Assembly (NCBI GenBank): GCA_010093745.1
Contig: MU005980.1
Location: 211,440 to 247,114, forward strand
Reading direction: 5' to 3'
DNA length: 35,675 nucleotides
Source of the DNA: Piedraia hortae CBS 480.64
Taxonomy: Eukaryota
In this document: positions 1,106 through 35,675 of the stretch, piece after piece
Numbering within the stretch: the stretch's first letter is position 1
Layout: each line of letters starts with the position of its first letter
Program-made: the position numbers and the translations under genes
The notes under the pieces: model-generated
The model's database searches: none
What the model was told of the DNA's origin: nothing
The model's input: only the letters and a program-made list of their open reading frames with translations

Positions 1106-3242
1106 ATGGCCAGGAGTCACAGCTCACGGCGAGCCGCATCCCCTTGGATGACGGTCTTCTATGTCTTTTCTCTCCTTCTGGCACCGATGCTCCTCGTGGG
1201 GCTCATACCCGCTGCACAGGCCGATGGTTCCAAAGAGTCGTCAGTGTCTGGTCCAGGTAAGTCTTGTCTAAGCTCACTGTAGTAAATCGCATCTTAATTT
1301 ATGGCAGTGATTGGCATTGATTTGGGCACAACATATTCGTGTGTAGGCATCATGAAGGGCGGCAAGGTTGAGATCCTTGTCAATGACCAAGGCAACCGCA
1401 TCACACCGTCATGGGTGGCATGGAACGATGAAGAGCGTCTGGTCGGAGACGCGGCAAAGAATCAATACGCCTCTAATCCCCAGCGCACCGTCTTCGACAT
1501 CAAGCGTTTGATTGGCCGAAAATACGACGATAGGGATGTGCAAAAGGACATCAAGCACTTTCCGTTCAAGGTCATAAACAAGGGCGGCCAACCGCGGGTA
1601 AAAGTTGACGTCAAGGGCGAGGAGAAGACGTTCACGCCCGAAGAGGTTTCGTCTATGGTATTGGGCAAGATGAAGGAGGTTGCCGAGAACTATCTGAATG
1701 AAAAGGTCACCAACGCGGTCGTCACTGTGCCGGCCTACTTCAATGACGCTCAACGTGCGGCTACCAAGGACGCCGGAACCATTGCCGGCCTCAACGTCAT
1801 GCGCATTGTCAATGAGCCCACAGCCGCCGCTCTCGCCTACGGCCTCGACAAGTCGGACAAGGAGCGCCAAATCATCGTCTACGATCTTGGTGGTGGCACA
1901 TTCGATGTCTCGGTTTTGACAGTGGACCACGGTGTCTTTGAAGTTCAGGCGACGGCTGGCGACACTCATCTCGGCGGTGAAGACTTTGACCAGCGGGTTG
2001 TCGACTGGTTCGTCAAAAACTACAACAGCAAGCACGGTACAGACATCACCAAGAATCCCAAGACCATGGGCAAGCTCAAGCGCGAGGTTGAAAAGGCCAA
2101 GCGCACACTTTCCAGCCAAATGAGCGCCAAGATTGAGATCGAGGCCTTTCACGAGGGCAAGGACTTCTCTGAGACGCTCACTCGCGCCAAGTTTGAGGAG
2201 CTCAACAACGATCTCTTCAGGAAGACGCTGAAGCCCGTGGAGCAGGTGCTCAAAGACTCGAAGCTGAAAAAAAGCGACATTGACGATATCGTTTTGGTTG
2301 GTGGGTCTACTCGTATTCCCAAGGTTCAGGCCATGTTGGAGGATTACTTTGGCAAGAAGGCCAGCAAAGGAATCAATCCTGACGAGGCTGTTGCCTATGG
2401 TGCTGCCGTCCAGGGCGGTGTTTTGTCTGGCGAAGAAGAGGTAATTTCTGACCCTTTCGAGTCTTTGCGAGTTCTAACATCTGATGCAGGCCAAGGATCT
2501 TGTTCTTATGGACGTCAATCCGTTGACTCTTGGCATTGAAACTACAGGTGGAGTCATGACCCATCTGATCAAGCGTGGCACAACAATTCCCACGAAAAAG
2601 AGCCAGATCTTCTCTACGGCTGCCGATAACCAGCCCATTGTCCTCATTCAGGTCTTTGAAGGCGAGCGGTCTATGACAAAGGACAACAATCTTCTCGGCA
2701 AATTTGAGCTCTCCGGTATTCCGCCTGCGCCACGTGGCCAGCCCCAAATTGAAGTCACGTTCGAGCTAGATGCCAACGGCATCTTGCGTGTAAGCGCGGC
2801 CGATAAGGGCACTGGCAAGAGCGAATCTATCACCATCACCAACGACAAGGGCAGATTGAGCGCTGAGGAGATCGAGCGCATGGTTGCCGAGGCTGAGAAG
2901 TATGCGGAAGAAGACAAGGCTACTCGCGAGCGCATCGAGGCCCGCAATCACTTGGAGAACTACGCATTCAGCCTCAAGAACCAAGTCAATGACGCGGAAG
3001 GCCTTGGCGGCAAGATCGAGGAGGACGACAAGGAAGCTATTCTTGAGGCTGTCAAGGAAGCACAGGACTGGTTGGAGGAGAATGCGCAATCGGCTGACGC
3101 TGAGGCGTTTGAGGAACAGAAACAGAAGCTTTCTGATGTCGCACACCCAATCACCAGCAAACTGTATGGTGGCGGATCTAGCGGCGGTGCAGGGGGCATG
3201 CCTGACTGGGACGAGGAGCCGTCCAGCCATGATGAATTGTAG
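1106..3242 (+). CDS. KAR2: ER Hsp70 chaperone BiP, 678 aa; exons 1106-1256, 1308-2440, 2490-3242
   Basis: Signal peptide [39 protein letters not shown], Hsp70 motifs [21 protein letters not shown] and [11 protein letters not shown], and C-terminal HDEL. Introns GTAAGT..CAG (1257-1307) and GTAATT..CTAAC..CAG (2441-2489) join the ORFs in frame. Confidence 0.98.
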
Positions 3243-4671
3243 TTGGCGTTGGTGTAAATGTTAGAGTGGGTTCCACGGGAAATGTATACAGCCAAGCAAT
3301 GAAATAGTCTCACGTCTGCATGTACAGTTGTTTCATAATGCGTCAGTAGTAGAGCTTGAATCACACAGCATAAAGTTGGCCAATTGAATTAGCAAAACTA
3401 GGGCGGGTTACCAATTTGAAACTGTCAGTCTAGTGCGTAGGGGATACCATTCAATGATGATGGGAGAAGAGACCAGCCAAACTAATCTATTGTACGGTTT
3501 CGATTCTGCAATACACCCCCTCCTCGATTGAAAGCTGGTAAGCAAGTTGTCCATCAACCCATGCTGTCTCCAAGGCCATGACAGAGCCGAGAACCATGTG
3601 TCGGAATGGTGAGCCTCCGAGGACTAAAGTGGAGCGGATATCAACGACTAGTGTGTTCACTTAACTTTGACCGAAAGGTGAATCTAGATGTCTATCTCTA
3701 TGTGAGGTGAGGTTTCGAAACCTTCCCCACACTACCTCAGTCTAACCGCATTCGCCAGGACAACGTCAGCGAACCATGCCCTTAAGCATGAACGAGACAA
3801 TGACCCATCTCAGGGTAAACTTCCTCTATAGAGGTAAAAACCCTGAGAAGTTTCGACTTCTATCTACAGTTCGGGTCATGGTAGGTGCCACATCCTTCTG
3901 ACAGAGCGTTACCAGGAGATATCTCTAGGTGAACCCGCTCCGCATGAACCATATATTGGTGTCTATCCGTGAATCATTTCCTGGGATATTTAGCGACTGC
4001 GCAAGGTCTTTGGACCGCACATCGTGGCCTGCGTGGTGCTTCGGCCTGGCAATTTTGTCGAATCTGGCTAGGAAGCAATATCGATTGTTGGTGCCCTTCA
4101 CGTCTCGAGGCGGTGTTGTAGTTTGAAGCTTTGTGCCGCGCACAAAATAAACTTATGCCAGTCCCTCATCGTCCTAGCTTCGTGCACCATTGACCAGAGG
4201 TGCACGTGGGTGCACTGCAAAATTGCGCGCAGGCTATTCCTCGACTCACCGCTTGCCGCCCGTAAGCCTCCTGAAAACACGCAGAAAAGTGTTCAATGGT
4301 TCCAACAGAACACTTGTCCTGAGACACGCGGAGCGCATAATATAAGCCGATAAGTTCATGCATGTGCCAAGAAATTCGCGCACGGATCTCCCCTGACACG
4401 TGGCCTGCACGGTCTTGTCTTTGAAGCCTACTTTACCACTTACCATACGTCTTGTCGCTACTTTGACGCAAAACCGCGTGATACCGATCACATCATACAT
4501 ACCCGAGCGTGGACTCACTGCCTTGACAATCATATTTAGCGCTTGGCGGCCGACATCGGTGCTGTTTACGGAGGCCCATAATTGACTGCCAATCAAGTTA
4601 CGGGTTTCCCGGAAACAACGCACGGACTAACAATAATACGTGGTCCGTGGTGTGCCCTCGCATGAATACCA

Positions 4672-5045
4672 TGTTGGATTCAAGCATCGCCGCTAGCGCG
4701 TATGCAGGGCACTTGCATAGCAAGTCAGCGATACCTCCTACACTACCAGCTGCACCCTAGATTATTCCCTTCACAGAGATTTTCGCTCAGGGTCATGTCA
4801 TATGTGACACGGCGAATGCGGCCTGCTAGTATACGACGTGACGTCACCGGCCCACCGGTACAGAATTTTCATTCTGAACGTCCCCTCATTTGAGATAGAT
4901 AGTCATTCACACTGTCACATCGACACTGGTATTGACTCATCTTCATCTGCATCTGTCCTGTCCCTGTTGTCAATTTCCGTCTATCGCTTAGTCCTCTTAA
5001 TTCGGGACGCTGCGCACTCCCATCAACGAGAGCCTTATCGCTACA
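4672..5045 (+). mobile_element. Solo LTR, copy 1 (374 bp; strand is relative only)
   Basis: Starts TGTTGG and ends GCTACA (TG...CA). Flanked by the exact 5-bp direct repeat TACCA (4667-4671 and 5046-5050). Homologous over its full length to the reverse complement of 13173-13657. Confidence 0.9.
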
Positions 5046-5546
5046 TACCATTCCCAATTGCCCCTTATGCTTTTACACCGCAACATAAACTTCCCGCCTG
5101 CTTGATAAACACTTGCAAGTATATACATAATCTCGGACGAGTGCTGCCTTCCCAAGACTTTCGCTGAGGTTATCAGGTCATGATAATGTACAGCACCTAC
5201 CCCGTGAGTGGGCGCACACAATAAGCGCTGACAATACGAGGCGCATAAGGTCAACTTTCTTTTGAAGGACTTCCACAATCTCAAACAGCGATTCTACAAC
5301 TCCTGGCACGGGCCAAAGTCAAGCCCAACCTTCCCTCAGACGTCAACGACCGCTGCGTTGAATCTTTTGAGGAGACACTTGCTCTGTCAAGTATCTATGT
5401 TAAGCGGATCCTAGAAGTCAGCGGTATACTGCTGGAGGGCGTTTCAGCACACGAATGCGACAAAGTTCTTCATTGGCCGTATTAGGAAGAAGATGTAGTT
5501 TGTCACCTGTTACCAACATTTAGTCAAAACCATCGACACCCGAACA

Positions 5547-5900
5547 ATGCCTTCCTCGTCACCATCTTCTTCACCCCACTCCCTCTCCAATGGCAAAAAC
5601 TGGCGTGCCAAGTCCACCTATACGCCAATCGTCGCCAATACCCGCAGTCGCCACCGCGGGTACGACACCTTTAACGAGGCTTGCAGTGTAGGTGCCTATC
5701 GATCCACAACCCAGGTCCCTGGTGTGTCACTTCCTGATGCAGGATGATTGCTTCTCCTTATGCAGCATGTTCGCACTGCCTGAACAGACTCTGACCGCAG
5801 CACTGAATGTGACGGCCTAGTCACTCGGCAGGCTGGAAGAGGCGGTCAAGGAAGCAAGACCTGGAGGAGCAGCAATATTGCTCCGACTGCATGGCGTCTC
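5547..5900 (+). pseudogene. Disrupted paralog of the small protein at 7579-8055 (3' boundary approximate)
   Basis: MPSSS...NWRAKSTYTPIVANTRSRHRGYDTFNEACSVGAYRS aligns to 7579. A net 23-nt deletion near 5721 shifts the frame. The +1 frame continues CHFLMQDDCFSLCSMF (vs GHLVVRGDCFSLCSIF), meets TAG at 5818-5820, then continues EEAVKEARPGGAAILL (vs ETFVKESRAEKAARLL). Confidence 0.8.
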
Positions 5901-6621
5901 CATGACCTGTGGTGCGTCGGACGCTATAAGGACGCAAAAAACCATCCCTTCACCTTTCCAATCCGGCCATATCCATTTTTTGTAACGGCCTTTCCGTGAC
6001 CATTGGTTCTGATACATATCAGCGTTGTCTGTCTGTCCCTTTGGAGGTTATACCTCACACCACAAACCCTTATGCACGTTGACTCTTTAAACTGGTCATT
6101 CTAAGACACCGTGGAGCTACAACTGGACCGGGAACATGATGCGTATCGCTGCCTTCGCGAAAAGAATATGGATGGGGAGTAAACAGGAGTAGAAGCGGAA
6201 GCGATATACGGTGTACCATTACGCTGAATATTGTCGAGTGACGACCCAAGCGGATAGGGACTGTGCAGGTCGGAAGGTACGAATACCTCCCTAACATCGT
6301 GGCAAACAGTCTTGTAGTAGTAGGCAATGCATTCAACACCAAATTCATCTCATTTCAAGTTTTGAGATGTATAGATTCCTATATGACTAATCCACAAGAA
6401 TTGACGGTGGCCGCTCATGGAGGCACATTTGTATGAGAGTCATGTCCATATGACTCATATTTACAAAAAATATTCGTCTCTCGCTGAACTATATCGTTAG
6501 TTGTAGAATCTGCAGGATCAAAATCTTGCACACGGAACTACAGGCTTGAAATGATTTGGCGCCATTATTGTGATACCGAAAGACTACACTTAAGCCTCTG
6601 CCCAGTCATTCTCCTTCCTCC

Positions 6622-7179
6622 CTACTCCCCTGGAAACTTTCCGAAAATCCACTTGTAAGCAAGTGGGTCTTTTGCCATTTCCTCGTCAAACAAGTCTGCC
6701 CACAAGCCCTCCTTGTAAAAATCATATGGTAGCGTTCGTGCCTCGTGCGAATCGACCGCAACTGAATCTTTGGCAGGCTGCTGCGGCGACTGCACCGAAG
6801 TAGGAGAGGAGTGACGATTGCCCATGGTTGCTAGGAAGGCGTTGCGAGACATCTTGGTATCGCACCCCTGTTTGGTGGTGGGCACTTGACGGTATACCCC
6901 CGCGGCTTGCGCTTCGTGATAAGTGTTATACCCCTGATACCAACCGCGGGTATCCTCATTGATGGGAGTATAATTTGAGTTTCGGCGCCAATCGTTGGCA
7001 GGACGGGTGCCGGTGCTTGCGATGCTATTGGTGTCCTTGATTAAGTTGGCATGGGCCGCGCGGATCTCTTCATGAGTATTGTAGCCATGGTATCGGTCAC
7101 GAGCACTGGCATGAATCGGAGTGTAGGTCGAGCGGGAACGCCAATCACGACCTGGAGAGTAGCCGGGAGTGTTAGACAT
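6622..7179 (-). CDS. Hypothetical 185-aa protein with two tandem copies of the W..STY.PI....R..Y.GY.T..E motif
   Basis: First ATG at 7179. DWRSRSTYTPIHASARDRYHGYNTHEEIRAA and DWRRNSNYTPINEDTRGWYQGYNTYHEAQAAGVYR match each other and the neighbouring paralogs. C-terminal DPLAYKWIFGK matches EPDTYRWFYGK of 7579-8055. Protein-level conservation supports coding. Confidence 0.8.
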   Translation of the reverse strand: MSNTPGYSPGRDWRSRSTYTPIHASARDRYHGYNTHEEIRAAHANLIKDTNSIASTGTRPANDWRRNSNYTPINEDTRGWYQGYNTYHEAQAAGVYRQVPTTKQGCDTKMSRNAFLATMGNRHSSPTSVQSPQQPAKDSVAVDSHEARTLPYDFYKEGLWADLFDEEMAKDPLAYKWIFGKFPGE

Positions 7180-7578
7180 CTTGTTCGAAGGATTTAGATA
7201 GTCGTGGTGTGGAGTGTCCGAGAGGGAACGGGATGTGGGAAGTTGAAGGTTGAAGGGGAAACACATACTATATGAAGGGTGGAGGATCGAACTCTACTCA
7301 AGTGAGCCCTGGAGCCAGTGAAGCAACTTCGACATTATAGTTACCCGCAAAGTTTGCTTAGGTCACATGTGTGCAAACCCATTTTACACCTGAGTCTATC
7401 TGGCGGCACTTCATTTCACTTACAAGTAAACTTTTCTTTACTTGAGGGGAACTCCAGCTATAAGAACCAAACCCATCCTCCTCTCCTTGCAAAACTCTCC
7501 AAACCATCTTCCCCGACAACCTTCTAGCATCACCACAAAACACCACTTTAGCCACACTGCTCAACACGCTTATCCGTC

Positions 7579-8055
7579 ATGCCTTCCTCGTCATCGCCCT
7601 TCACTGGCAATGATTGGCGCAAAAGCTCAACATACAAGCCGATCGCTAACAATGCCCGCGGTCGTTACAACGGATACGACACTTTTATCCAGGCGCGTGC
7701 TGCCGGCGCCTACCGCTCTGACGCCACAAAGGGCCAAGTTCCCTCCGGGCCAAATAGATCTGAAGCCAAGGGCCACTTGGTCGTGCGCGGCGACTGCTTT
7801 TCGTTGTGCAGCATCTTTGGACCAGCGAAGAAGGCCCCCGCCACTACGAAAAAAGTGGCAGCCAAGCCCTCCTTCAAGCCCAAGGAAACATTCGTCAAGG
7901 AGTCCAGAGCTGAAAAGGCAGCTCGTCTTCTCCCGCCCTTGAGTATGGATGTACGCGTCCAAGCTGGGTCGTGTTATGGAATTATGCAGCTGCAGTTGGA
8001 GCTGGAGCCGGATACGTATCGCTGGTTTTACGGTAAAGAGATGGATGAGGAGTAA
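7579..8055 (+). CDS. Hypothetical 158-aa protein with a single copy of the same motif
   Basis: DWRKSSTYKPIANNARGRYNGYDTFIQARAAGAYR, an intact ORF, and a TATA-like TATAAGA at 7459-7465. Divergent from the paralog at 7179 across a 399-bp spacer. Confidence 0.8.
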   Translation: MPSSSSPFTGNDWRKSSTYKPIANNARGRYNGYDTFIQARAAGAYRSDATKGQVPSGPNRSEAKGHLVVRGDCFSLCSIFGPAKKAPATTKKVAAKPSFKPKETFVKESRAEKAARLLPPLSMDVRVQAGSCYGIMQLQLELEPDTYRWFYGKEMDEE

Positions 8056-8427
8056 ACAGGATGGGGAACGGGAGCAAGACACGCGTATGTACAACTACTG
8101 TTTCATGAACAATCGATTCCTTCTGTGACTTTCTCAACGTTTTGCAATCAGATCAAATATTTGTCGCATTTCTTAGAGTTTTGTAACGATCTGTGTCATT
8201 CTCCGCTGCGAACGCAATTTTAATCAAACTTCATACGCAACTAGTGCTACACGCAGACAGCAGACATGCCCAATTGAAGAAGCCGGTCTACAGCTGTTTG
8301 CAGCACTTTCTGTGCGTAGAGTATGGATTAGAAATGTGCACACAGTGTGTGAGACTTCCAGCAAAATAATTTATAACAAGGAGAAAAATTCGTTAAAGAC
8401 TATAATCCAGCCCGTACCTGTACCTAT

Positions 8428-9133
8428 TTAATCCCTCATAAACTCCACCAAGACGGGATAAACCAGCTCAAACGCCCTCAACAAAGATTCATGAATCTTC
8501 GACCCCGTAAGCACAACCTTCCCGTTCCCAAATAACATAACCGTCACCTTCGGCTCGAAGACATGATACACCAACCCCGGAAAGATCTCCGATTCGTAGA
8601 CACAAATCAGCGCATGTGTCCTCGCAAGAGCATCAAGATTCACCCCGAACCCGACATTACAGGAAGCAACAATGTTTTCAACCGCGTAATCCTCGAATCT
8701 CGCGTTGAATCCCGCTTTTTCGACCATGCGTGCGAATTTTAGCGTCGCAAGTCTGCTGGTCGCGAGGGAGTTAGTGCCCGTTACGATCATCTTGCCGGAG
8801 GAGAAGATATTCGCAGTACTCCGCGGGGACCGCATTCGCATTACCACTGCGTGAAAGCGTTTTGGGTTATATTCGGTGTTGTTAGCACGGAGGGCGAGTT
8901 CGTAGAGGTCGATAATCGTATCGAGGTTGACGCTAGAGACGACGTTTCTGGTTGGTGGAGTCAGAGATGGGAGGGTTAGTGAGACGGTGGACGTACTGAA
9001 TTTTTGGGATGGGGATAGATGTGGTTGGGTCAGTGGACGTTGTGGTGGGTTGAGTTACTTCGTCTTCCAGTGCGTCGTGGAACCGTCGTGCAGCGCGGGC
9101 GCTGGTGAGATTTGTCTGGCAGAGGCGGTGCAT
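8428..9133 (-). CDS. Divergent TATA-box-binding protein paralog (TBP-related factor), 218 aa; exons 9133-8997, 8947-8428
   Basis: A 49-nt intron GTACGT..CTAAC..CAG (8996-8948) joins PIPKIQ to NVVSSVNL...EYNPKRFHAVVMRMRSPRSTANIFSSGKMIVTG...ENIVASC...YESEIFPGLVY...LFGNGKVVLTG...AFELVYPVLVEF. This is a complete, gap-free two-repeat TBP core with no stops or frameshifts. Confidence 0.93.
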
Positions 9134-11216
9134 GATTGGTTTTGTATATGTGGTCTTTGGATGTGTCGATGATGGGGTAGGTATTTAGAGTATGGGGAAT
9201 GAGGTACGGGGAGGAACTGGCTCGATGTACATGGCTTAGATTCAGGCACCATGCTCCATGTCAGGGCTGCTAAAGAATTGATAAAATAAATATCTTGGCA
9301 CGTTTTTGGCCTCAGGCACCATTTTATCATAAAAACTGGCGGCATCCATTGACGACAAAATAATGCCCGAGGCTAAAAAAGCGCCAAGATATTTCTTCCA
9401 TCTATTCTTCAACAGCCTTGCTCCATGCTGGGCACGTCTACGTTACCATCACATTTGTTACAGTGAGGCTAGTGATCATGTATCTTGTGCAGTAAGGCAT
9501 TGCTTTGCCTCGTCAGGACATGTACGACTGTGTAGTGAATTGCGTTGTGGAACCGGAAGAGCTTTCAAGGTGACCGTCGCAGGGATAGATATTTTTGTGT
9601 TACCTACTTCAATGCGAAGAGTTGAGAAAACCTTCATGTTTTCACGCGCCCTCTCTGGTGATTCTTACAGGCAAGCCTTCTCGTTTTATAATTGTTTCAT
9701 GGGCGCGGTTTACCAGGCGCGCACTATACAGACAAGGGGCTCTCGTGCAGGAGATCATGAGTATATAGCTGGCCCTCTGGCCCTCTCTAGCTTCCATACG
9801 AGACAATATCTTTCTTGAACCTGAGCACATGCACGTTCCCGGTGCTTTCCTTTGCAGTAATGGGGCCGCGTTATAGGCACTCCGACCTGAAGTATAATAT
9901 TGGCCATTCGAGGCGAGTCTTGATGTCGCACAGTGCTAAAAGACCTGAACGCTGTCATCACATTCGTAACGAAGCCATCTTCACTGCAATACATGACTGA
10001 CTCGTTCCCTGCAGCATAAACTGTGAACAAAAGACCACTTTTGCTACTGAACATCATTCTCATCGGCACTAGCGTGGTAGTAAGAGTGACGTACCATACG
10101 TTATCAGAAAATGGCCACAAGTCGATGACAGTAGGGCAAAGAGAAGTGAGGAGAGAACCAAGAAGCCGTATGCATGCTGATTTGTTTAGTGCTCCATATG
10201 TCAATTCTGGCTTGAATAATATAAAGCTTGTTGCAAAGTTAAATAAACTCTGTTGACAAGCCTTTTTGTACAATTAAGAAGTATTTCTCATTGAGTAATC
10301 ACTCTTGCGACATGAGCAGCAAAATAAGGGCAAGGAAAAATGCCATCTCATAACCGAGAATGTAATGTTGTCTATTTCGCGCCAATCCGTCGTTCTCTCC
10401 GTCATCAGACTTATTCACCATAATTTGCTGCCCTAATGAAGATCGTTTGCACGAGCGGCACTATCGCATGGTAGGATGCGTGACGGCTGAGCTCTTGGTA
10501 AACGAGGCAAACATGATAGCACGGTGAGCCTCATGCCAGATGAGTTAGATCGGTGAAGTTAGAACGCCCGAGGCTTCGCAGAGCTTTCTGCCTCATAGAG
10601 GAGTTTTCCCCTGTGACACGATCACGTCATCGCGTGGTCGCAGCAAATGCGGTCTGGCCAACTGTAGGACTGTGGAAGACGTTGCGTTAGCTCTTAGCAC
10701 GTAGAGACGTACACAATTACACACACCTTTTGACCCAGACTTCGCGTCTTACATGGGAGAGGTGGAGCAGTAGAGACTTCATAGTCACGTATTTTAAGAC
10801 ACGGCTGAAGCTCAATGTAAGAAGTTCTCCTACTATAGTTAGTGACAGATACTGAGCGTTGTGGAAACAATAGTCAACCGTTCCTAAACAGGGATGCCAA
10901 GTTTAAGATCCCCTGGGTAGAGAAAAGTCCGTGCAGTGCGTATAGGCCGCTTTGAAGCTCGCGCGGGTAGAATGCGACCTTTGAAATTCAGCGAGAGGTG
11001 GATCACGACTAATGCTACCTGTGGCGGCGTAATTGAAAGAGTTAGCGCTGACTGTGCAATTTCGGCAAAACTTCGTATTACTTTCTCAAATCACAAATCT
11101 TTCATATCACAGAGGAAGCGACGATATTCGCGAAACCAAGAAATTCGCAATATCCTTCACAATATCATCGCATCATTCGTCCCGATTCCACCCACTCCAT
11201 CGCTATACAATCAAAG

Positions 11217-12693
11217 ATGCGACGTCGTAAGGGCGCCAAGGGCAAAACCAAAAAGCATGGGGAACCTGCCGTGCGAAGATTGAATGTGATGCTTTCAAGA
11301 TAAATGCAACTACGGAAAACTTAGACCTCTCCACGAAAACGGCAGTCTCCAAGTCCGTTCAGGCATAAGTTTAGGACGACGTGGACGATGAGCGTGAGCC
11401 GAGTTTGAAGGTTACCTACCAAGCAGAAGACAACCAACCCTCAGAGTGCGCATTAAAACGATTGGCGAGAGGCAATCCTCATAAAAGGAGAAGCGCACCA
11501 CCCTTAGCAAGGAGTATCAAAAAGCCCAAGTGGTGGCTGGCCAGAGACGCGTGCAAAAGCGAAGACAAAAAATCGAAACCATCACGCAAGACAGTGCCGC
11601 GCCCATGTGGGGCATGGAAGAGTTAATCGTCCGACTGGTCGCACTGATGCTACAAGTCGAAGACGATCCCGACGTGGAGCCTGCAACAGAGCTCCTACAC
11701 AAAATGGTTTATCAAGCCGACAACAATTCCCCACTCTTGAGGACCAGATCGATGTCTCTTTCCGTATTGTTCACACCCTCATCCCCGGAGACGGTGCGCC
11801 GTTCCGCGCCCCAAGAACCGTATATCGGCAGTATTGATTGCATGAAGCTATTGCTAGAAGGAATCCGCAAAGTGCTCTCATTCCTGCAAAACGCCAGCGC
11901 AGACGTCGAACACATGTATGTCGAATCGACTACATTTCATGAGTTTGTCTCCACAGCCGGAGCCGCAAGGCTTATGCGAGAGTTGAGAGATGTGATGTCT
12001 TTGCAAGAGCCCTAATGTCAAACAGTGTTCGATGCTCGTTGTATTCTCCAACAAAGTGCCATGGAAAGCCTGCAGGGGCTGGACTGTATGGGAGGAACTG
12101 GCAAGAACGAGGGATTGGAGCGAGATACTTTGATCATGAAAGAAGAGGTTGAGAAATAGCAAAAGCAGGCAGGGCATCTTCTTCTTGAGAAGATCGAGTT
12201 TGGCTTTGATGAGGCCGAAAAGAGACAAATGTTCCGCAGATGCAAGGTGTATTCTGCTCTCATAGATCCTGCGAATTTTCCTAGGCCGTCCGACGACGAG
12301 TGTGCGGTTGCTCAGTTTGAAAATCTTGTGGAAGAGAGCGAAAACATTACGCAGAAATTAGCCAAGGGAACTATCCCAGCTGTGAGCAAAACACCACAAG
12401 AGCCTTCCCCACCCAGTGAAGAATCGAGCGCTGAAGACACCAAAAGCAAGGCTGCAAAAGAGACACTATAGCTTACAAAAGGCCAAAAACGGCGGTGTTA
12501 CGAGCTGTATGCCCCGGCGGAAGCAGATGTCGTACCCAAAGAAGCAGGGTCAAGATCAGAGAACAAGCCCAAAGCGAACGGCGAGGTCGAAAGAAGCAAC
12601 AAACGGGATGGAAATGCCTTCAATGAAAGTCAGTCTCTTCAGATGGTCAGACCTGAAGCAGGCAACGACGCTGCCGCAAGAGTGAAAAAATGA
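11217..12693 (+). pseudogene. Decayed gene for a charged hypothetical protein (boundaries approximate)
   Basis: One frame runs 11530-12693, broken only by TAA 12013, TAG 12157 and TAG 12469. An upstream frame has TAA 11366 and TAG 11372, plus apparent frameshifts. The read-through translation is K/E-rich and protein-like. No family recognised. Confidence 0.55.
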
Positions 12694-12736
12694 ATCCGCA
12701 GTAAAGGACGATTGCAATAACGAACGAAACTACCGC

Positions 12737-12755
12737 AAAAAAAAAAAAAAAAAAA
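12737..12755 (+). repeat. Poly(A) tract, A19
   Basis: Directly visible homopolymer. Confidence 0.9.
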
Positions 12756-13172
12756 CCACAAGAAAGTGACGCCATCACATCAAACGAGCCAATGAGTAGT
12801 CCCCAAGCGAATACCCAGCAAGAAAATCATGCTGTAGCTGAGCTATTTCAATACCAAACACTGCTTTGATAGTGCTAGAATAGCAAGGTACAACAACGGA
12901 GACTCTTCGTGAAATGTAGTTTTTTCAAAAGAGTCACTTGACGTGCAAAGTGAGACCCTTAGCTTGTAAAATATCGATATGGCACATCTTCAAAGCAAGA
13001 GCTTTCAAGGAAACTCGTTTATAGCCACGTTGGATGGTTGTGTGTCGCGCATTTTACGTTATATCTGGCTTGCGCGCAGTATGAATGTGCGCACGCAGTG
13101 GGGAAGCATTGCAAAACTAACCAGAAGTTGAGTAACTTATGGCACTGATGCCTTTCGCGCGGGGGTATCGCC

Positions 13173-13657
13173 TGTAGCGATTTGGCTCCCGAGTGTGAGA
13201 GTGCGCAGCGGCCCGAAGAGGACGAAGCGATAGACAGAAACAGGGACAGGACAGATGCAGATGGATATGAGTCAATACCAGTGTCGATATGACAATGTGA
13301 ATATGACTATCAGTTGAAGGATGTGTCACGTGATGACTATGTACAGCATCCTTTCATGTATGCAGCACAAATAACAATACTATTATTCATGTCTTAGTGT
13401 ACTCACACTATCAGTTCGTCCCCTTTAACTCTATCTATCTCTATGAGGGGACGTCAGAATGAAAATTTCTACCGATGGGCCGGTGACGTCGCGTCGTACA
13501 CTAGCAGGCCGCATTCACCATGTCACACATGACATGACCCTGAGGGAAAACCTCTGTGAAGGAAAAACCCAGGGTGCAGCTGGTAGTGTAGGAGGTATCG
13601 CTGACTTGCTATGCAAGTGCCCTGCATACGCGCTAGCGGCGATGCTTGAATCCAACA
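13173..13657 (-). mobile_element. Solo LTR, copy 2, inverted relative to copy 1 and carrying a nested insertion
   Basis: TGTAGC...CCAACA flanked by the exact 5-bp direct repeat TCGCC (13168-13172 and 13658-13662). Its reverse complement aligns to 4672-5045. Confidence 0.9.
13312..13430. mobile_element. 119-bp nested insertion (MITE-like or mini solo LTR)
   Basis: Absent from LTR copy 1. Ends AGTTGAAGG...CCTTTAACT form an imperfect inverted repeat, and CTATC is duplicated on both sides (13307-13311 and 13431-13435). The first 26 bp recur exactly at 34681-34706. Confidence 0.8.
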
Positions 13658-13791
13658 TCGCCAAGACAGCCCCTCTCAACTGTACTCCACTCTGCGTCAA
13701 ATCATCTCCCCAAACCCACAATCACAAACACAACGCTTCTGTACGTTATATGAACACGCTAACAACAAAAATATCCACTATGCTCCTACGA

Positions 13792-28671: not shown

Positions 28672-31600
28672 ATGCGCTCTTGGTGCTGGACTTCGGCCTT
28701 TTGCCTGCTACTGGCTCATGCCCGAGTAGCTCGCCCAGAAGACTCGTCTTCTGATAGCTCCAGCTGCTTACGGCGCTTGTTCCGGAAGCAAGCAGCTGAA
28801 CAGTCTTGGGTCGAGGATGTCTACTATAATTTCGTCCACAATACCTCTGTTGGCTAGACACTTTGCAAGCAAATGTTCAATTACCCTGATAAAACCGTCA
28901 CCGTCGAAGTCACACCAACTAGGCAAGTGTCTGCTACCTTCAGTAAATCTAGCCGTTAACAGTTGGCCAGCACTGAATACAACGTATATTCCACGCGGGT
29001 TGTTACTGTGCTATTCGTTAGCACCGATTCCAGTACCACGATAACGGCGACTGTGACTCCTACTCAAAGCGCTAAACGTCAAACAGATGAAGGTTTCGAC
29101 TTTTGGGAGAAGCTTAAAATCCAAGCCGCCAATGCCGGGCTACCCGCTCCCGATGACTCCCTGGTTAAGACTGCATTTGAGAATGCATGTCAATGCCAAA
29201 GTTTCGCTGGGAACACAGTCACTTCTACTTTCACGGATGACTCTACAGTGGCAACTCTGGATGAGTTCGATGTTACCACGACTACCTATGTTGCTACTAG
29301 TACGGCCCTTTCTGGAGTTGCTGAGGTTACAGCCACGGTAGATGCTTCTGCTTCTGCGGACCCTGAAACCGCGGTCTCGCAGGGGACAGCTACCACTACT
29401 AGCGCGCCTGATGCTGCAACCCCAGTTGCCCCAGCCCTTGCCTGTCCAGCAGATAACAACACGATTGTGAGTCAGTTGGTCGGGAATCAGCGATACGGCT
29501 ACCTCATCTTGTGTGATAGTGAGCTGACGTCTCCTGTCTGCAGGGGAGTTTTGTACAATGCTGGCGAGCAATCGAATAACTGTATCCTCAATGATGAAGC
29601 CGATGCAACTGAAGCTGCTGGTTCGAACGTTGCTCTTCTCCAAAGAATTGCAGTAGGTATCAATGGCAACACGCCGACAACAATAACACCTGCAATCGGC
29701 ACTCCGACATCTGACGCTGCCCAAGTCAGCTCTTCACTCGATTCGATCTTGATCAGCAAGTCGGAGACTATTCCCATGACTACCCTTGTGCCGGTAACTG
29801 TGACTCAGTCCGGCATGATTCATTCGACTTACGTTTCTGAGGGCACAACGTATTTTGTTGGCACCTGCTTCACTTCTGCCACACCTTTTGCTGATGGCCC
29901 ATGATACTCTACCTACTACACGTCCTATACGTTGTATTGGGCATCAACCACCACTGAGTATGTGATCACCCCAATGTCAACCGGCGCGACCAACTACGCC
30001 ACTTACTCCCCAAATGGCACTATCACCATCACTCAGATTATGACCAACGAGTCCTATATTTAGGGCGGTGAAGAGATCGCTTCTTCTGCCACGATGAATT
30101 ACTTCAGCTACGAGACTGGCTCGAGTGGCGCTGCTAGTGGGGGTCCCTCTCAGGCGTATGCTTCTATCACGCCCGAGTTATCAGCGACCACAATTACCAA
30201 TATCGGTGGAACTGGTGTAGTTGCCTCCGGCGCTGCATCAGGCAGCCCCTCACTTGGCTCAGAACTTCAACTACTGTAATGACTCTAAGCGGCGGTGTTG
30301 GATTCGGATCTTTCGGTGCTGCATCTGGTGGACTAACAGTCAACACATCCACGACTGCTGCGACCATGGTCGGTGGAACTGCCTTTGTCTATTTCGGAGC
30401 AGCATCTTGCGGCCCAAGTACCAGTATTTCCAACACCGTCATTCCAGGATCGAGTGGCATCGAGGTTATCTCCAGCGATGCTGTCTCTGGAGGCTCTTCG
30501 GCGACGACTTCCAGGACTGCAATTACAGTGAGTGGTGGTACTGTTGTGGTGTCCAGTGGAGCTGCATCTGGAGGCCCCACTCCAGAGACCTCGTCCACGG
30601 TGATTATTAACTCCGGCGACACGGCCTTCAGCACTGGCTCTGCTGCCTCAGGAGGCCCAAGCTCGTCTACGTTGCAAACTTCTGTTTCCCCCGGCGGGGC
30701 CAAATTTTCGAACACAGGCGCCCCTCGATCAGGCCTTGACACATCTGTTCCCACCTCTGATCCGAGTCCTTCATCACCGAGCAATGCGTTCTCGGACACC
30801 GGTGCGCCCCGCTCTGGTCTACTTGAGAAATCTTCGAGCACGATATCTTACGGACCATTCCCTAGCCAGCCTTCGCCTTCTCCGATTACCTCTAGCGACA
30901 CATTCCCCAACTCAGGTGCGCCTCGCTCTGGACAACCCGAGGAGTCACTCAGCACCACTTCTTCCGGGCCATCGACTTCCTCCGTAGTGTCTTCTACTTC
31001 TCTTGATACGTTTACCGACTTCGGTGCTCCCCTTTCCGGAGTCCTTGCTGAGACTTCGAGCACCACCGCAAGTAGCTCATCTCTCAGCACCATTCCCTAT
31101 GAGCCATTCACTTCTTCGGCAGCATCCTCCAGTCCTTTCAATAAATTCACCAACTCTGGTGTTCCTCGTTCCGGATTTCCTGATGAGACTTCAAGCACAA
31201 CCTCGAGTGGCCTATCAGCACCATTACATACGTGCCGTCGACAACAGGGAGCCCCACTCCGTCGAGCTCTAGCAACACATTCAATAATACAGGTGCACCT
31301 CGCTCTGGGCAACCTGGGGAATCCTCCAACAATATCCCAGACAACGTTTTCTTTTCCAGCCCTGCCACCACTGGCCCCTCATCTCTCAGCAAAAATCCAT
31401 ACGTGCCTTCTGAGTCAGAGACTCCGACTCACTCTAGCTCCAACACTTTCACCAACTCTGGATCGCCTCGTTCTGGATTCCCCGAGGAGTCTCTGAGCAC
31501 AATCCCCTTTGGCCACTTAGCTCCTCGCCAGTGTCCTCCAGCTCCGTGGATATCTTCACCAGTTCCAACGCTCCTTTCACTTCGCTATCCGCATTTCCAA

Positions 31601-31947
31601 ACACAATGAGCATTGTGCCATCAAGTTCTGATACATTCACTAATCCTGGCGCGCCTCGCTCGGGACAGTCTGAAACCACATCAACCTCGCCGTCTGCGTA
31701 TTCGAGCACAATGAGCACAGTGCCGTCAAGCTCCGACACTTCCACGAACTCTGGCGCGTCTCGCTTCAGACTCCCCGAGGAGAGCTCGAGCACTATACCA
31801 TGTGGCCCGTTCATCAGTTCCGTGATTTCGGTCCAGTCAGCCCCTTCAAGTCTTGGCAATACATCTCTTACCAGTACTCCACCGTTGAGCACATTTAGCG
31901 CGACTACCACTGAGACGGCAAAGGTCACGAAGACGGAGACAGTGTAG
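28672..31947 (+). pseudogene. Disrupted gene for a secreted Ser/Thr-rich repeat (mucin/cell-surface-like) protein
   Basis: Signal-peptide-like MRSWCWTSAFCLLLAHARVA and in-frame TAGs at 28855 and 30061 within coding-like sequence. The same peptide repeats continue across different frames (30094, 30279, 31232 and 31531 ORFs), showing several frameshifts. Confidence 0.75.
30121..31770 (+). repeat. Coding repeats: ~7x (S)SGAASGGP-like, then ~9-10x F(S/T)N(S/T)GAPRSG-like
   Basis: GAASGG-type units at 30121-30660. FxNxGAPRSG-type units near 30706, 30789, 30903, 31011, 31146, 31280, 31448, 31636 and 31741, separated by Ser/Thr/Pro spacers. Confidence 0.85.
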
Positions 31948-34680: not shown

Positions 34681-34895
34681 AGTTGAAGGATGTGTCACGT
34701 GATGACCATGAACAACGTCCCCTAACTATACACATATTTGTTGGCATGAAGTCTCATTGCTATGAGTGTAGATGCCAATACGCGACACCGCTTACACCAG
34801 CAGCTGCACCCTAGGTTTTGTCCTAACAGAGGTTTCCCTCAGGTCCTGTCGCATGCGACATGGTGAATGCGCCCTGCTAATGTTTGAGGTGAGTC
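34681..34895 (+). mobile_element. Degenerate remnants: start of the 119-bp element (34681-~34730) abutting a diverged partial third LTR copy (from TGTTGG at 34739)
   Basis: AGTTGAAGGATGTGTCACGTGATGAC is identical to 13312-13337. CAGCTGCACCCTAGG..CAGAGGTTTCCCTCAGG..GACATGGTGAATGCGCCCTGCTA aligns to LTR 4747-4828. Confidence 0.7.
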
Positions 34896-35675
34896 ATGGA
34901 GTAGGGCCGCATGCTGACGGCCTTACTGCATGTATGACCACTTGCTTACGGTCATACGATTGATGACTCTTCATACGAGGCTACGCACGGGCGTTCCAGC
35001 CCAGAAGATATTCTCTGATGTCCCCTCGTAGATACACTTGTATTCACTCATACACACACCGCTACTCTCAATCCATCGTTCCCACTCGCACGTACCATCT
35101 GTTTCAGTTTGTACGTTAGCGTGGAAATCACCCAAAACTCTCATAATCAGGTCCCTGCACCACATAGAGACGTTGGTCTTCATGATCTTGGTCTTTAATC
35201 TACTTTTTCTCGCAGCTTGCAATTTTTGGTCCTACTATGTAGATATCACACAAAAGAGGAATATTACCACAATATCGCCGTAATATTCGGTAATATTCTG
35301 CAGGGCTAGCTGTGATAGCGGTAGAAATCATCAACACCAGTCTAAAATCTCCTGTTCCGCACATCGTAGAAGCTCACTGGCCCCTAAACGTACCTCTACC
35401 AACTTTAATGCCACAACTTAATACTGCATCTCAAATCAACCTTTGCGAGTCCCTCGAAAACGCAGGTGGTTTATCTGTTCACCTAAACATGCTCTCAAGA
35501 TACGCGAAAATGGAAGTAGTCTAAACGTCAAAATAAATTTCCAAGCTAACTCTGAGAAATCAGTGTCAAATAGTAATGCTAAATTTACAATCTACTCCTT
35601 CCAATGCTAACCTATTATAATTGTGAGCAGATGTGTACCTGCATACAAATCTCTACGGAAAACTAGTTGACGCGT

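Follow-up and report, generated by a model that had tools for sequence, protein, structure and literature searches.

Fungi, and yeast above all, serve as the reference for a single universal TATA-binding protein (TBP). A TBP-family gene of the hair fungus Piedraia hortae CBS 480.64, located within the 35,675-nt stretch of DNA analysed here (the window), raises the question of whether a fungus can carry a TBP that has departed far from this standard and, if so, what such a protein would do. The answer proposed below, with a probability of roughly 0.6, is that the gene encodes an intact, selectively maintained and very fast-evolved TBP, most likely a DNA-level duplicate of a Pezizomycotina TBP gene, which would exist beside a canonical TBP and act as an alternative core-promoter factor.

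Gene structure and predicted fold

The gene occupies positions 8428-9133 of the window on the minus strand and consists of two exons and one 49-nt intron. Its features are as follows:

8997..9133, minus strand: exon 1 (137 nt), with the ATG at 9133-9131; it encodes a 45-residue tail and ends with the CA of the Gln46 codon
8948..8996, minus strand: intron (49 nt, phase 2), bounded by 5' GTACGT and 3' CAG, with a CTAAC branch site
8428..8947, minus strand: exon 2 (520 nt), encoding the entire TBP core, Asn47-Asp218, with the TAA at 8430-8428
8689..8946, minus strand: first TBP repeat (residues 47-132), with Phe77 and Phe94 (yeast F99 and F116) and the TFIIA-side stirrup EYNPKRF
8443..8688, minus strand: second TBP repeat (residues 133-214), with Phe168 and Phe185 (yeast F190 and F207) and the stirrup Y-E-S-E-I-F-P-G-L

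The spliced coding sequence of 657 nt encodes 218 aa followed by TAA, without an internal stop or frameshift. The intron (8996-8948) divides a Gln codon into CA and A directly before the first core residue, Asn47, and the 45-residue N-terminal tail is rich in Thr, Ser, Pro and Ala. The 218-aa product is letter-identical to GenBank protein P0001 of Piedraia hortae CBS 480.64, named by NCBI 'eukaryotic TATA box binding transcription initiation factor TFIID-1'; a model of the gene is already present in databases.

The protein encoded by exon 2 matches the Pfam TBP family (PF00352) with 164.4 bits against a cut-off of 22.9, in two stretches, the best of which is 87-168 of the 172-aa query. Residues 1-170 of the same query match chains of 35 distinct PDB sequences, including the solved TBPs of Chaetomium, yeast, human, plants and Encephalitozoon. 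The top match, Chaetomium 7z7n_D (199.7 bits), and yeast 1rm1_A (189.2 bits, chain residues 69-238) both cover query residues 1-170 without gaps, and the gap-free statement rests on these two displayed alignments. An earlier note on this DNA had described a spliced, lesion-free 218-aa ORF with a full, gap-free TBP core, a description borne out by the exon and intron reading and by the PDB alignments. The AlphaFold2 model (m8d6f9e5f81be, built from a 77-row alignment) has a mean pLDDT of 89.6, with 96-98 in the core blocks, and contains the elements S1-H1-S2-S5-H2 twice, in keeping with the S1-H1-S2-S3-S4-S5-H2 order of each TBP repeat; residues 1-40 have a pLDDT of 48-62, i.e. they are disordered. 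The 218-aa protein can be predicted with confidence to have the TBP saddle fold, composed of two repeats.

DNA-binding and partner surfaces

Positions F99, F116, F190 and F207 of yeast TBP, which we take to be the residue numbers of the kinking phenylalanines, are all occupied by Phe in the Piedraia protein (4/4). With yeast numbering taken from the gap-free PDB match (1rm1_A), and with the roles of the listed DNA-contact, TFIIA-side and TFIIB-side positions in yeast TBP likewise assumed, the protein retains 13 of 21 DNA contacts, seven of eight residues on the TFIIA side and three of six on the TFIIB side, where E186 and E188 are kept. Residues N69, V71, N159, V161, T124 and T215 are also unchanged, as are the EYNPKRF stirrup and the fold-critical Gly, Pro and Phe positions. 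The two Phe pairs are described as the DNA-kinking residues of TBP in the available part of PMC6672047.

The changes include L114N, R196H and G174A, the complete replacement of strand S4' (0/5 identical) and an extensively altered helix H2, where 7 of 17 residues are identical and R137L and K127N are found. The net charge of the core is +2 versus +12 in canonical TBPs, a drop of 10. In the second repeat (8443..8688), the changes I194V, V203T and L205M (yeast numbering) affect all three positions altered in the mutant TBPm3, V203T being identical to the TBPm3 substitution. According to the available part of PMC1636458, TBPm3 (I194F, V203T, L205V) binds not only TATA but also TGTA, its stringency being relaxed.

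The best reading of this residue pattern is that the protein would be a TATA-type DNA binder, competent to interact with TFIIA and TFIIB, with its sequence preference shifted and its regulatory surface rebuilt. The kept Phe residues, the Asn, Val and Thr minor-groove contacts and the stirrups would probably still allow AT-rich core promoter DNA to be bound and bent, and the kept stirrup residues would probably still permit the recruitment of TFIIA and TFIIB. The changes at positions 194, 203 and 205, which take part in recognition of the second TATA base pair, may have shifted or relaxed the sequence preference, and the rebuilt convex surface, together with the loss of charge, would leave the protein largely uncoupled from TAF1, Mot1, NC2, Brf1 and SAGA. 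Such a protein could serve as an alternative core-promoter factor for a subset of promoters or conditions. A more specific proposal is a two-TBP system, in which canonical TBP would be general and the diverged copy would work at a separate promoter class with a TGTA-like or relaxed 5' half-site, escaping Mot1, NC2 and TAF1; this proposal is tentative, and in its full form we would not expect it to be right.

The main rival to the alternative-factor reading is a decoy or regulator, a protein with the TBP fold that competes for TATA boxes, TFIIA or TFIIB and acts as a repressor or buffer without taking part in initiation. Kinking Phe residues and stirrups kept beside a heavily changed convex surface (7/17 in H2; R137L, K127N, G174A) are consistent with this role, as is the fall in net core charge from +12 to +2, and the purifying selection described below is compatible with any retained function. 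E186, E188 and seven of the eight TFIIA-side residues, however, are kept, as an initiation-competent factor would need. The present evidence does not separate a decoy from an alternative initiation factor, and we consider the decoy role unlikely, if still worth serious attention.

Divergence, selection and origin

The core of the Piedraia protein is identical to that of the Elasticomyces TBP (P0338), a canonical Dothideomycete protein, at 89 of 173 positions (51%), and to canonical cores generally at 51-52%, in agreement with the earlier estimate of a core 'about half identical'. The canonical cores of 12 Dothideomycetes are nearly identical among themselves, 99% alike when compared with Penicillium and 92% when compared with a yeast-like sequence. 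The canonical cores of Pezizomycotina are 92-99% alike, and the Piedraia protein falls outside this near-invariance of the housekeeping ortholog: of 158 columns invariant among 25 canonical Pezizomycotina TBPs, 73 (46%) are changed in it, and its end branch in a maximum-likelihood tree of 56 rows measures 2.28 changes per column, the median being 0.19. Among 1.84 billion cluster representatives, searched exhaustively with HMMER, 6670 TBP-family proteins were found, none more than 54% identical, and a word-based search yielded two nearer proteins, both from metagenomes (58% and 55% identical); neither search found a close ortholog in any other named fungus. The BiP of the same window matches yeast Kar2 with 634 bits over about 375 residues. 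Because this neighbour is ordinarily conserved, the fast divergence is, as far as sequence comparison tells, specific to the TBP-family gene within the window.

A canonical TBP was sought in run X1, the only public run found with the locus, where 124 of 124 sampled words of window positions 8200-9400 are present; no RNA run was listed for these positions, and X1, the kind of which is guessed as DNA, may be the source of the window and hence not independent. Its contigs were compared, at a likeness of at least 80%, with a canonical cDNA-like locus (L004:155-931), a Penicillium-like reference 98% identical to P0304. One contig (A; 20,874 nt, depth 272.4) spans the tail and core with 10-12% differences from the reference and is interrupted by three introns, in the L004 codons Gln88, Lys117 and Asp256. 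Another (B; 33,358 nt, depth 12.3) matches L004 positions 418-819 unbroken, with 70 differences in 402 positions (82.6% identity), and continues into a canonical IVLLIFVSGKI-type coding sequence. Since Dothideomycete cores are 79-85% identical to L004 at the DNA level, contig B looks like a Dothideomycete gene and contig A like a relative of L004. The X1 contigs total 55.8 Mb versus 16.95 Mb for the published assembly; this total and the 22-fold gap in depth indicate that X1 is a mixture of two or more fungi, each having a canonical TBP, and that its data are not to be read as one organism. On these contigs, it is likely that a canonical TBP is present beside the diverged gene in the Piedraia hortae genome. 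In published supplements, those of PMC5415576 do not mention Piedraia, and those of PMC7082219 do not mention PF00352, TATA or TBP.

The intron of the Piedraia gene has the same place and phase (a Gln codon divided into CA and A) as introns of the canonical loci L077, L069 and L070 and of contig A, and the match of contig B begins at that same reference position, 418. Locus L077, the core of which is 98% identical to the Acidomyces TBP, has a single intron up to residue 265, as in the Piedraia gene. The shared place and phase fit either duplication of a Pezizomycotina TBP gene at the DNA level or direct descent from one. The earlier proposal of a paralog that arose by DNA-level duplication thus retains the intron as its support; for a canonical TBP alongside, the mixed run X1 gives indirect support.

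Direct descent would make the diverged gene the sole TBP, a fast-evolving housekeeping ortholog in a reduced genome that lacks a canonical copy. The genome of Piedraia hortae, with 16.95 Mb and 7,572 genes, is the smallest and has the fewest genes of 101 Dothideomycetes (PMC7082219, available part), which would suit such a reduction. No protein named Piedraia hortae occurs among the best 120 of 6273 hits to a canonical Aulographum query or among the best 120 of 5291 hits to the canonical L004 query, but best-120 lists of more than 5000 canonical TBP hits say nothing on absence from this species. A sole TBP would require 73 changes at otherwise invariant positions and the co-change of many partners, whereas canonical cores hardly vary, in Dothideomycetes or in other classes, and the BiP of the same window is ordinarily conserved; moreover, the run that contains the locus also has canonical-type TBP genes, one of them single-intron and Dothideomycete-like (82.6%). 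This explanation is therefore highly unlikely; if the gene were the sole TBP of the genome, the finding would be far more surprising.

When the gene is set against the canonical coding sequences of metagenome loci, all 11 comparisons give a dN of 0.41-0.43. In the same 11 comparisons, dS was undefined by NG86 and YN00 gave no estimate, so four-fold sites were used instead of a formal dN/dS; they were taken from codons sharing the first two bases (42-44 sites per comparison). The four-fold difference between the Piedraia gene and canonical genes averages 0.78 over the 11 comparisons, i.e. saturation, versus 0.56 over 55 canonical pairs, the saturation being partly inflated by a shift in third-position composition (G 0.40 versus 0.08-0.19 in canonical genes). 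Nearly all the amino-acid change, plus extra synonymous change, falls on the Piedraia branch, so that the branch-average dN/dS would be well below 1, with a rough upper bound of about 0.3; the comparison is with canonical genes of other species and does not date the duplication. The dN/dS check suggested by the earlier note, carried out here against canonical genes, thus gave a dN of about 0.42 with saturated four-fold sites, not a ratio near 1. Of 2000 random-mutation runs carried to 65% or 57% nucleotide identity, none retained at least 51% amino-acid identity, and 47/2000 and 13/2000, respectively, were free of stops. When neutral runs were halted at 51.5% amino-acid identity, 159 of 3000 (5.3%) were stop-free; an open frame alone is thus weak evidence of selection. 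Judged by its codon-level pattern, the TBP-family gene is intact, not decaying and under purifying selection.

An unselected or recently dead duplicate, drifting neutrally and yet to acquire a stop, would account for an orphan confined to one species, for which no ortholog exceeds 58% identity, and for its position in about 10 kb of DNA where no other gene is recognised; 5.3% of the neutral runs halted at the gene's own amino-acid identity do remain open. It is at odds with the saturated synonymous sites (0.78 versus 0.56 in canonical pairs, at a dN of 0.42), with the failure of all 2000 neutral runs to keep 51% identity at the observed nucleotide divergence, with the lack of gaps against solved TBPs over 170 residues, and with the intact splice signals and kept fold-critical Gly, Pro and Phe positions. 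We regard it as very improbable.

The surroundings of the gene include two further features:

1298-3242, plus strand: Hsp70 gene, the intact BiP/Kar2 ortholog, which contains a 49-nt intron (2441-2489) and matches the yeast Kar2 ATPase domain with 634 bits
9262..9420, no strand assigned: imperfect palindrome with 72-nt arms, 74-78% complementary, and a 15-nt spacer, 130-290 nt upstream of the ATG

Several neighbours had been taken for pseudogenes, which was not confirmed: the Hsp70 gene is intact, its apparent frame change being splicing, since 2441-2489 is an ordinary 49-nt intron, and no gene remnants were recognised in the flanks of the TBP gene. In roughly 4 kb on either side (3300-7400 and 9300-13450), none of 33 ORFs of at least 70 aa has a Pfam match, no ORF exceeds 223 aa and GC is ordinary (0.46-0.52). 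The TBP gene is located in a gene-poor island, while the rest of the window is gene-dense, with BiP, a HECT E3 ligase, a HIM1-like gene, MTHFR and Fe-ADH. The palindrome may belong to the promoter or may be what is left of a repeat. Inverted copies of a dispersed repeat, about 400-500 nt long and 8.1-8.8 kb apart, flank the TBP gene at 4671-5045 and 13173-13658, with 92.7% identity over 232 nt and 81% over 150 nt; a third, partial copy is found at 34681-34896. This flanking repeat may be a mobile element or a trace of the duplication that made the gene. A 99-nt direct repeat (6112-6210 and 7985-8083; 71% identity, 1873 nt apart) is located downstream of the TBP gene, and direct repeats of about 55-160 nt (70-81% identity) are found at 30880-31807, inside and just after ORF 30138-31496, which has no Pfam match and may encode a repeat-containing protein. 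No non-coding RNA was found in the window by Rfam and tRNA scans.

Further diverged TBPs (P0040, P0058, P0043, P0002 and P0007) are known from Podospora aff. communis, Tothia fuscella (176 aa, partial) and three metagenome sequences; by reading of its sequence, P0040 also carries Thr at yeast position 203. The 56-row core tree leaves the Piedraia protein unplaced: it joins the long branches of Podospora, Tothia and metagenomes with support of 71/92 and a long-branch warning. The AU test does not reject a single clade of this protein and the 25 canonical Pezizomycotina TBPs (p-AU 0.378). The TBP phylogeny that the earlier note had called for therefore leaves descent from canonical Pezizomycotina TBPs tenable and places the protein in no supported clade. 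Animal rows of the tree did not join the Piedraia protein; no TBPL1 row was included. A sister group with metagenome proteins P0002 and P0007 (57% and 53% core identity) was considered but gained no backing from the trees: its support was 0 in a quick tree, it was absent in the careful tree and in a 27-row quick tree, and the shared derived residues are few and mostly Ile/Val. A tail motif, TNLTSARAARRF, was rejected as a match to canonical THPSTAQQAKAF, local alignment scores giving z from -0.76 to 0.33 for 10 canonical tails and 1000 shuffles each. A scan of viral contigs for close relatives found no viral relative.

A foreign origin, whether through horizontal transfer (from a virus or a distant eukaryote) or through contamination of the assembly, is the least probable explanation, for although the core tree places the protein in no supported clade, joining it to other long fungal branches (71/92), and third-position G is 0.40 versus 0.16-0.28 in neighbour genes, the locus is embedded between ordinary fungal genes on a record with a longest contig of 247,114 nt, GC is even along the window (0.46-0.61), the intron place and phase are common to Pezizomycotina TBP genes, their clade is not rejected (p-AU 0.378), and the viral scan was empty.

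Comparison with known TBPs

TBP is described as single-copy or 'frozen' in ascomycetes (PMC9934661, Table 2; PMC5415576, available part), and TBP paralogs are placed in animals (PMC7221094; bioRxiv 10.1101/2025.10.03.680374; PMC3597702). A literature search for published fungal TBP paralogs yielded only the Lichtheimia genome paper of Schwartze et al. 2014 (PMC4133162), the available part of which calls TBP duplication in fungi 'exceptionally rare', reports two TBP copies in four of four Mucorales examined and lists, outside Mucorales, Chaetomium globosum, Grosmannia clavigera, Podospora anserina and Laccaria bicolor. The premise of the earlier note, that ascomycetes have one TBP and that TBP-related factors (TRFs) are mainly animal, needs correction to the extent that rare ascomycete duplications are in print there; otherwise, the papers cited describe ascomycete TBP as single-copy and place TBP paralogs in animals. 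In its available part, this one genome paper notes the few fungal duplications without follow-up. As with those duplicates, the Piedraia gene is probably a second PF00352 gene in a fungus; Piedraia is, however, a Dothideomycete, a class absent from the list in the available part of PMC4133162. Most likely, the Piedraia copy is an extreme case of an already reported, rare fungal TBP duplication and, as far as the literature search reaches, the first TBP paralog noted in a Dothideomycete.

The diverged TBP of Podospora aff. communis (P0040, 198 aa) is 47% identical to the Piedraia protein. The diverged fungal copies are 56-64% identical to canonical TBP versus 43-57% among themselves; as each is nearer to canonical TBP, no common origin of the fungal duplicates is shown. 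Should the two-TBP proposal be true, it would mean, together with the copies from Podospora, Tothia and metagenomes, that TRF-like factors arose repeatedly in Pezizomycotina. The Piedraia gene is a tractable case for the question of whether fungi have alternative core-promoter factors, and its protein, with 46% of invariant positions changed yet kinking and stirrup residues kept, represents a natural experiment on which TBP surfaces can vary.

Canonical fungal TBP of the Spt15 type (Acidomyces P0328, Elasticomyces P0338) shares with the Piedraia protein a collinear saddle, the four Phe residues, both stirrups (EYNPKRF and E-x-E), an intron that interrupts the same Gln codon in the same phase, and a disordered N-terminal tail. 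The Piedraia protein differs in its core (51% identical, charge +2 versus +12, 73/158 invariant positions changed) and in its short tail (45 aa), the resemblance of which to canonical tails is no better than that of shuffles. With the mutant TBPm3 it has in common altered positions 194, 203 and 205 (V, T and M); in contrast to TBPm3, it occurs naturally and carries 84 further changes, two of its substitutions at these three positions are unlike those of TBPm3, and its DNA preference is predicted only.

Among animal factors, insect TRF1 and vertebrate TBPL2/TRF3 resemble the Piedraia protein as extra TBPs with kinking residues that may, in principle, support initiation at a subset of promoters. 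No orthology links them to it; the intron place and the AU test fit a fungal origin of the Piedraia gene. TBPL1 (TRF2, TLF) is, similarly, a strongly diverged paralog with the TBP fold. TBPL1 carries Trp at one of the kink positions, where Phe is otherwise conserved (PMC7221094), and according to the available part of PMC4133162 the TATA box is not bound by TRF2. The Piedraia protein differs from this factor in having all four kinking Phe residues, and the loss of Phe is not seen in it.
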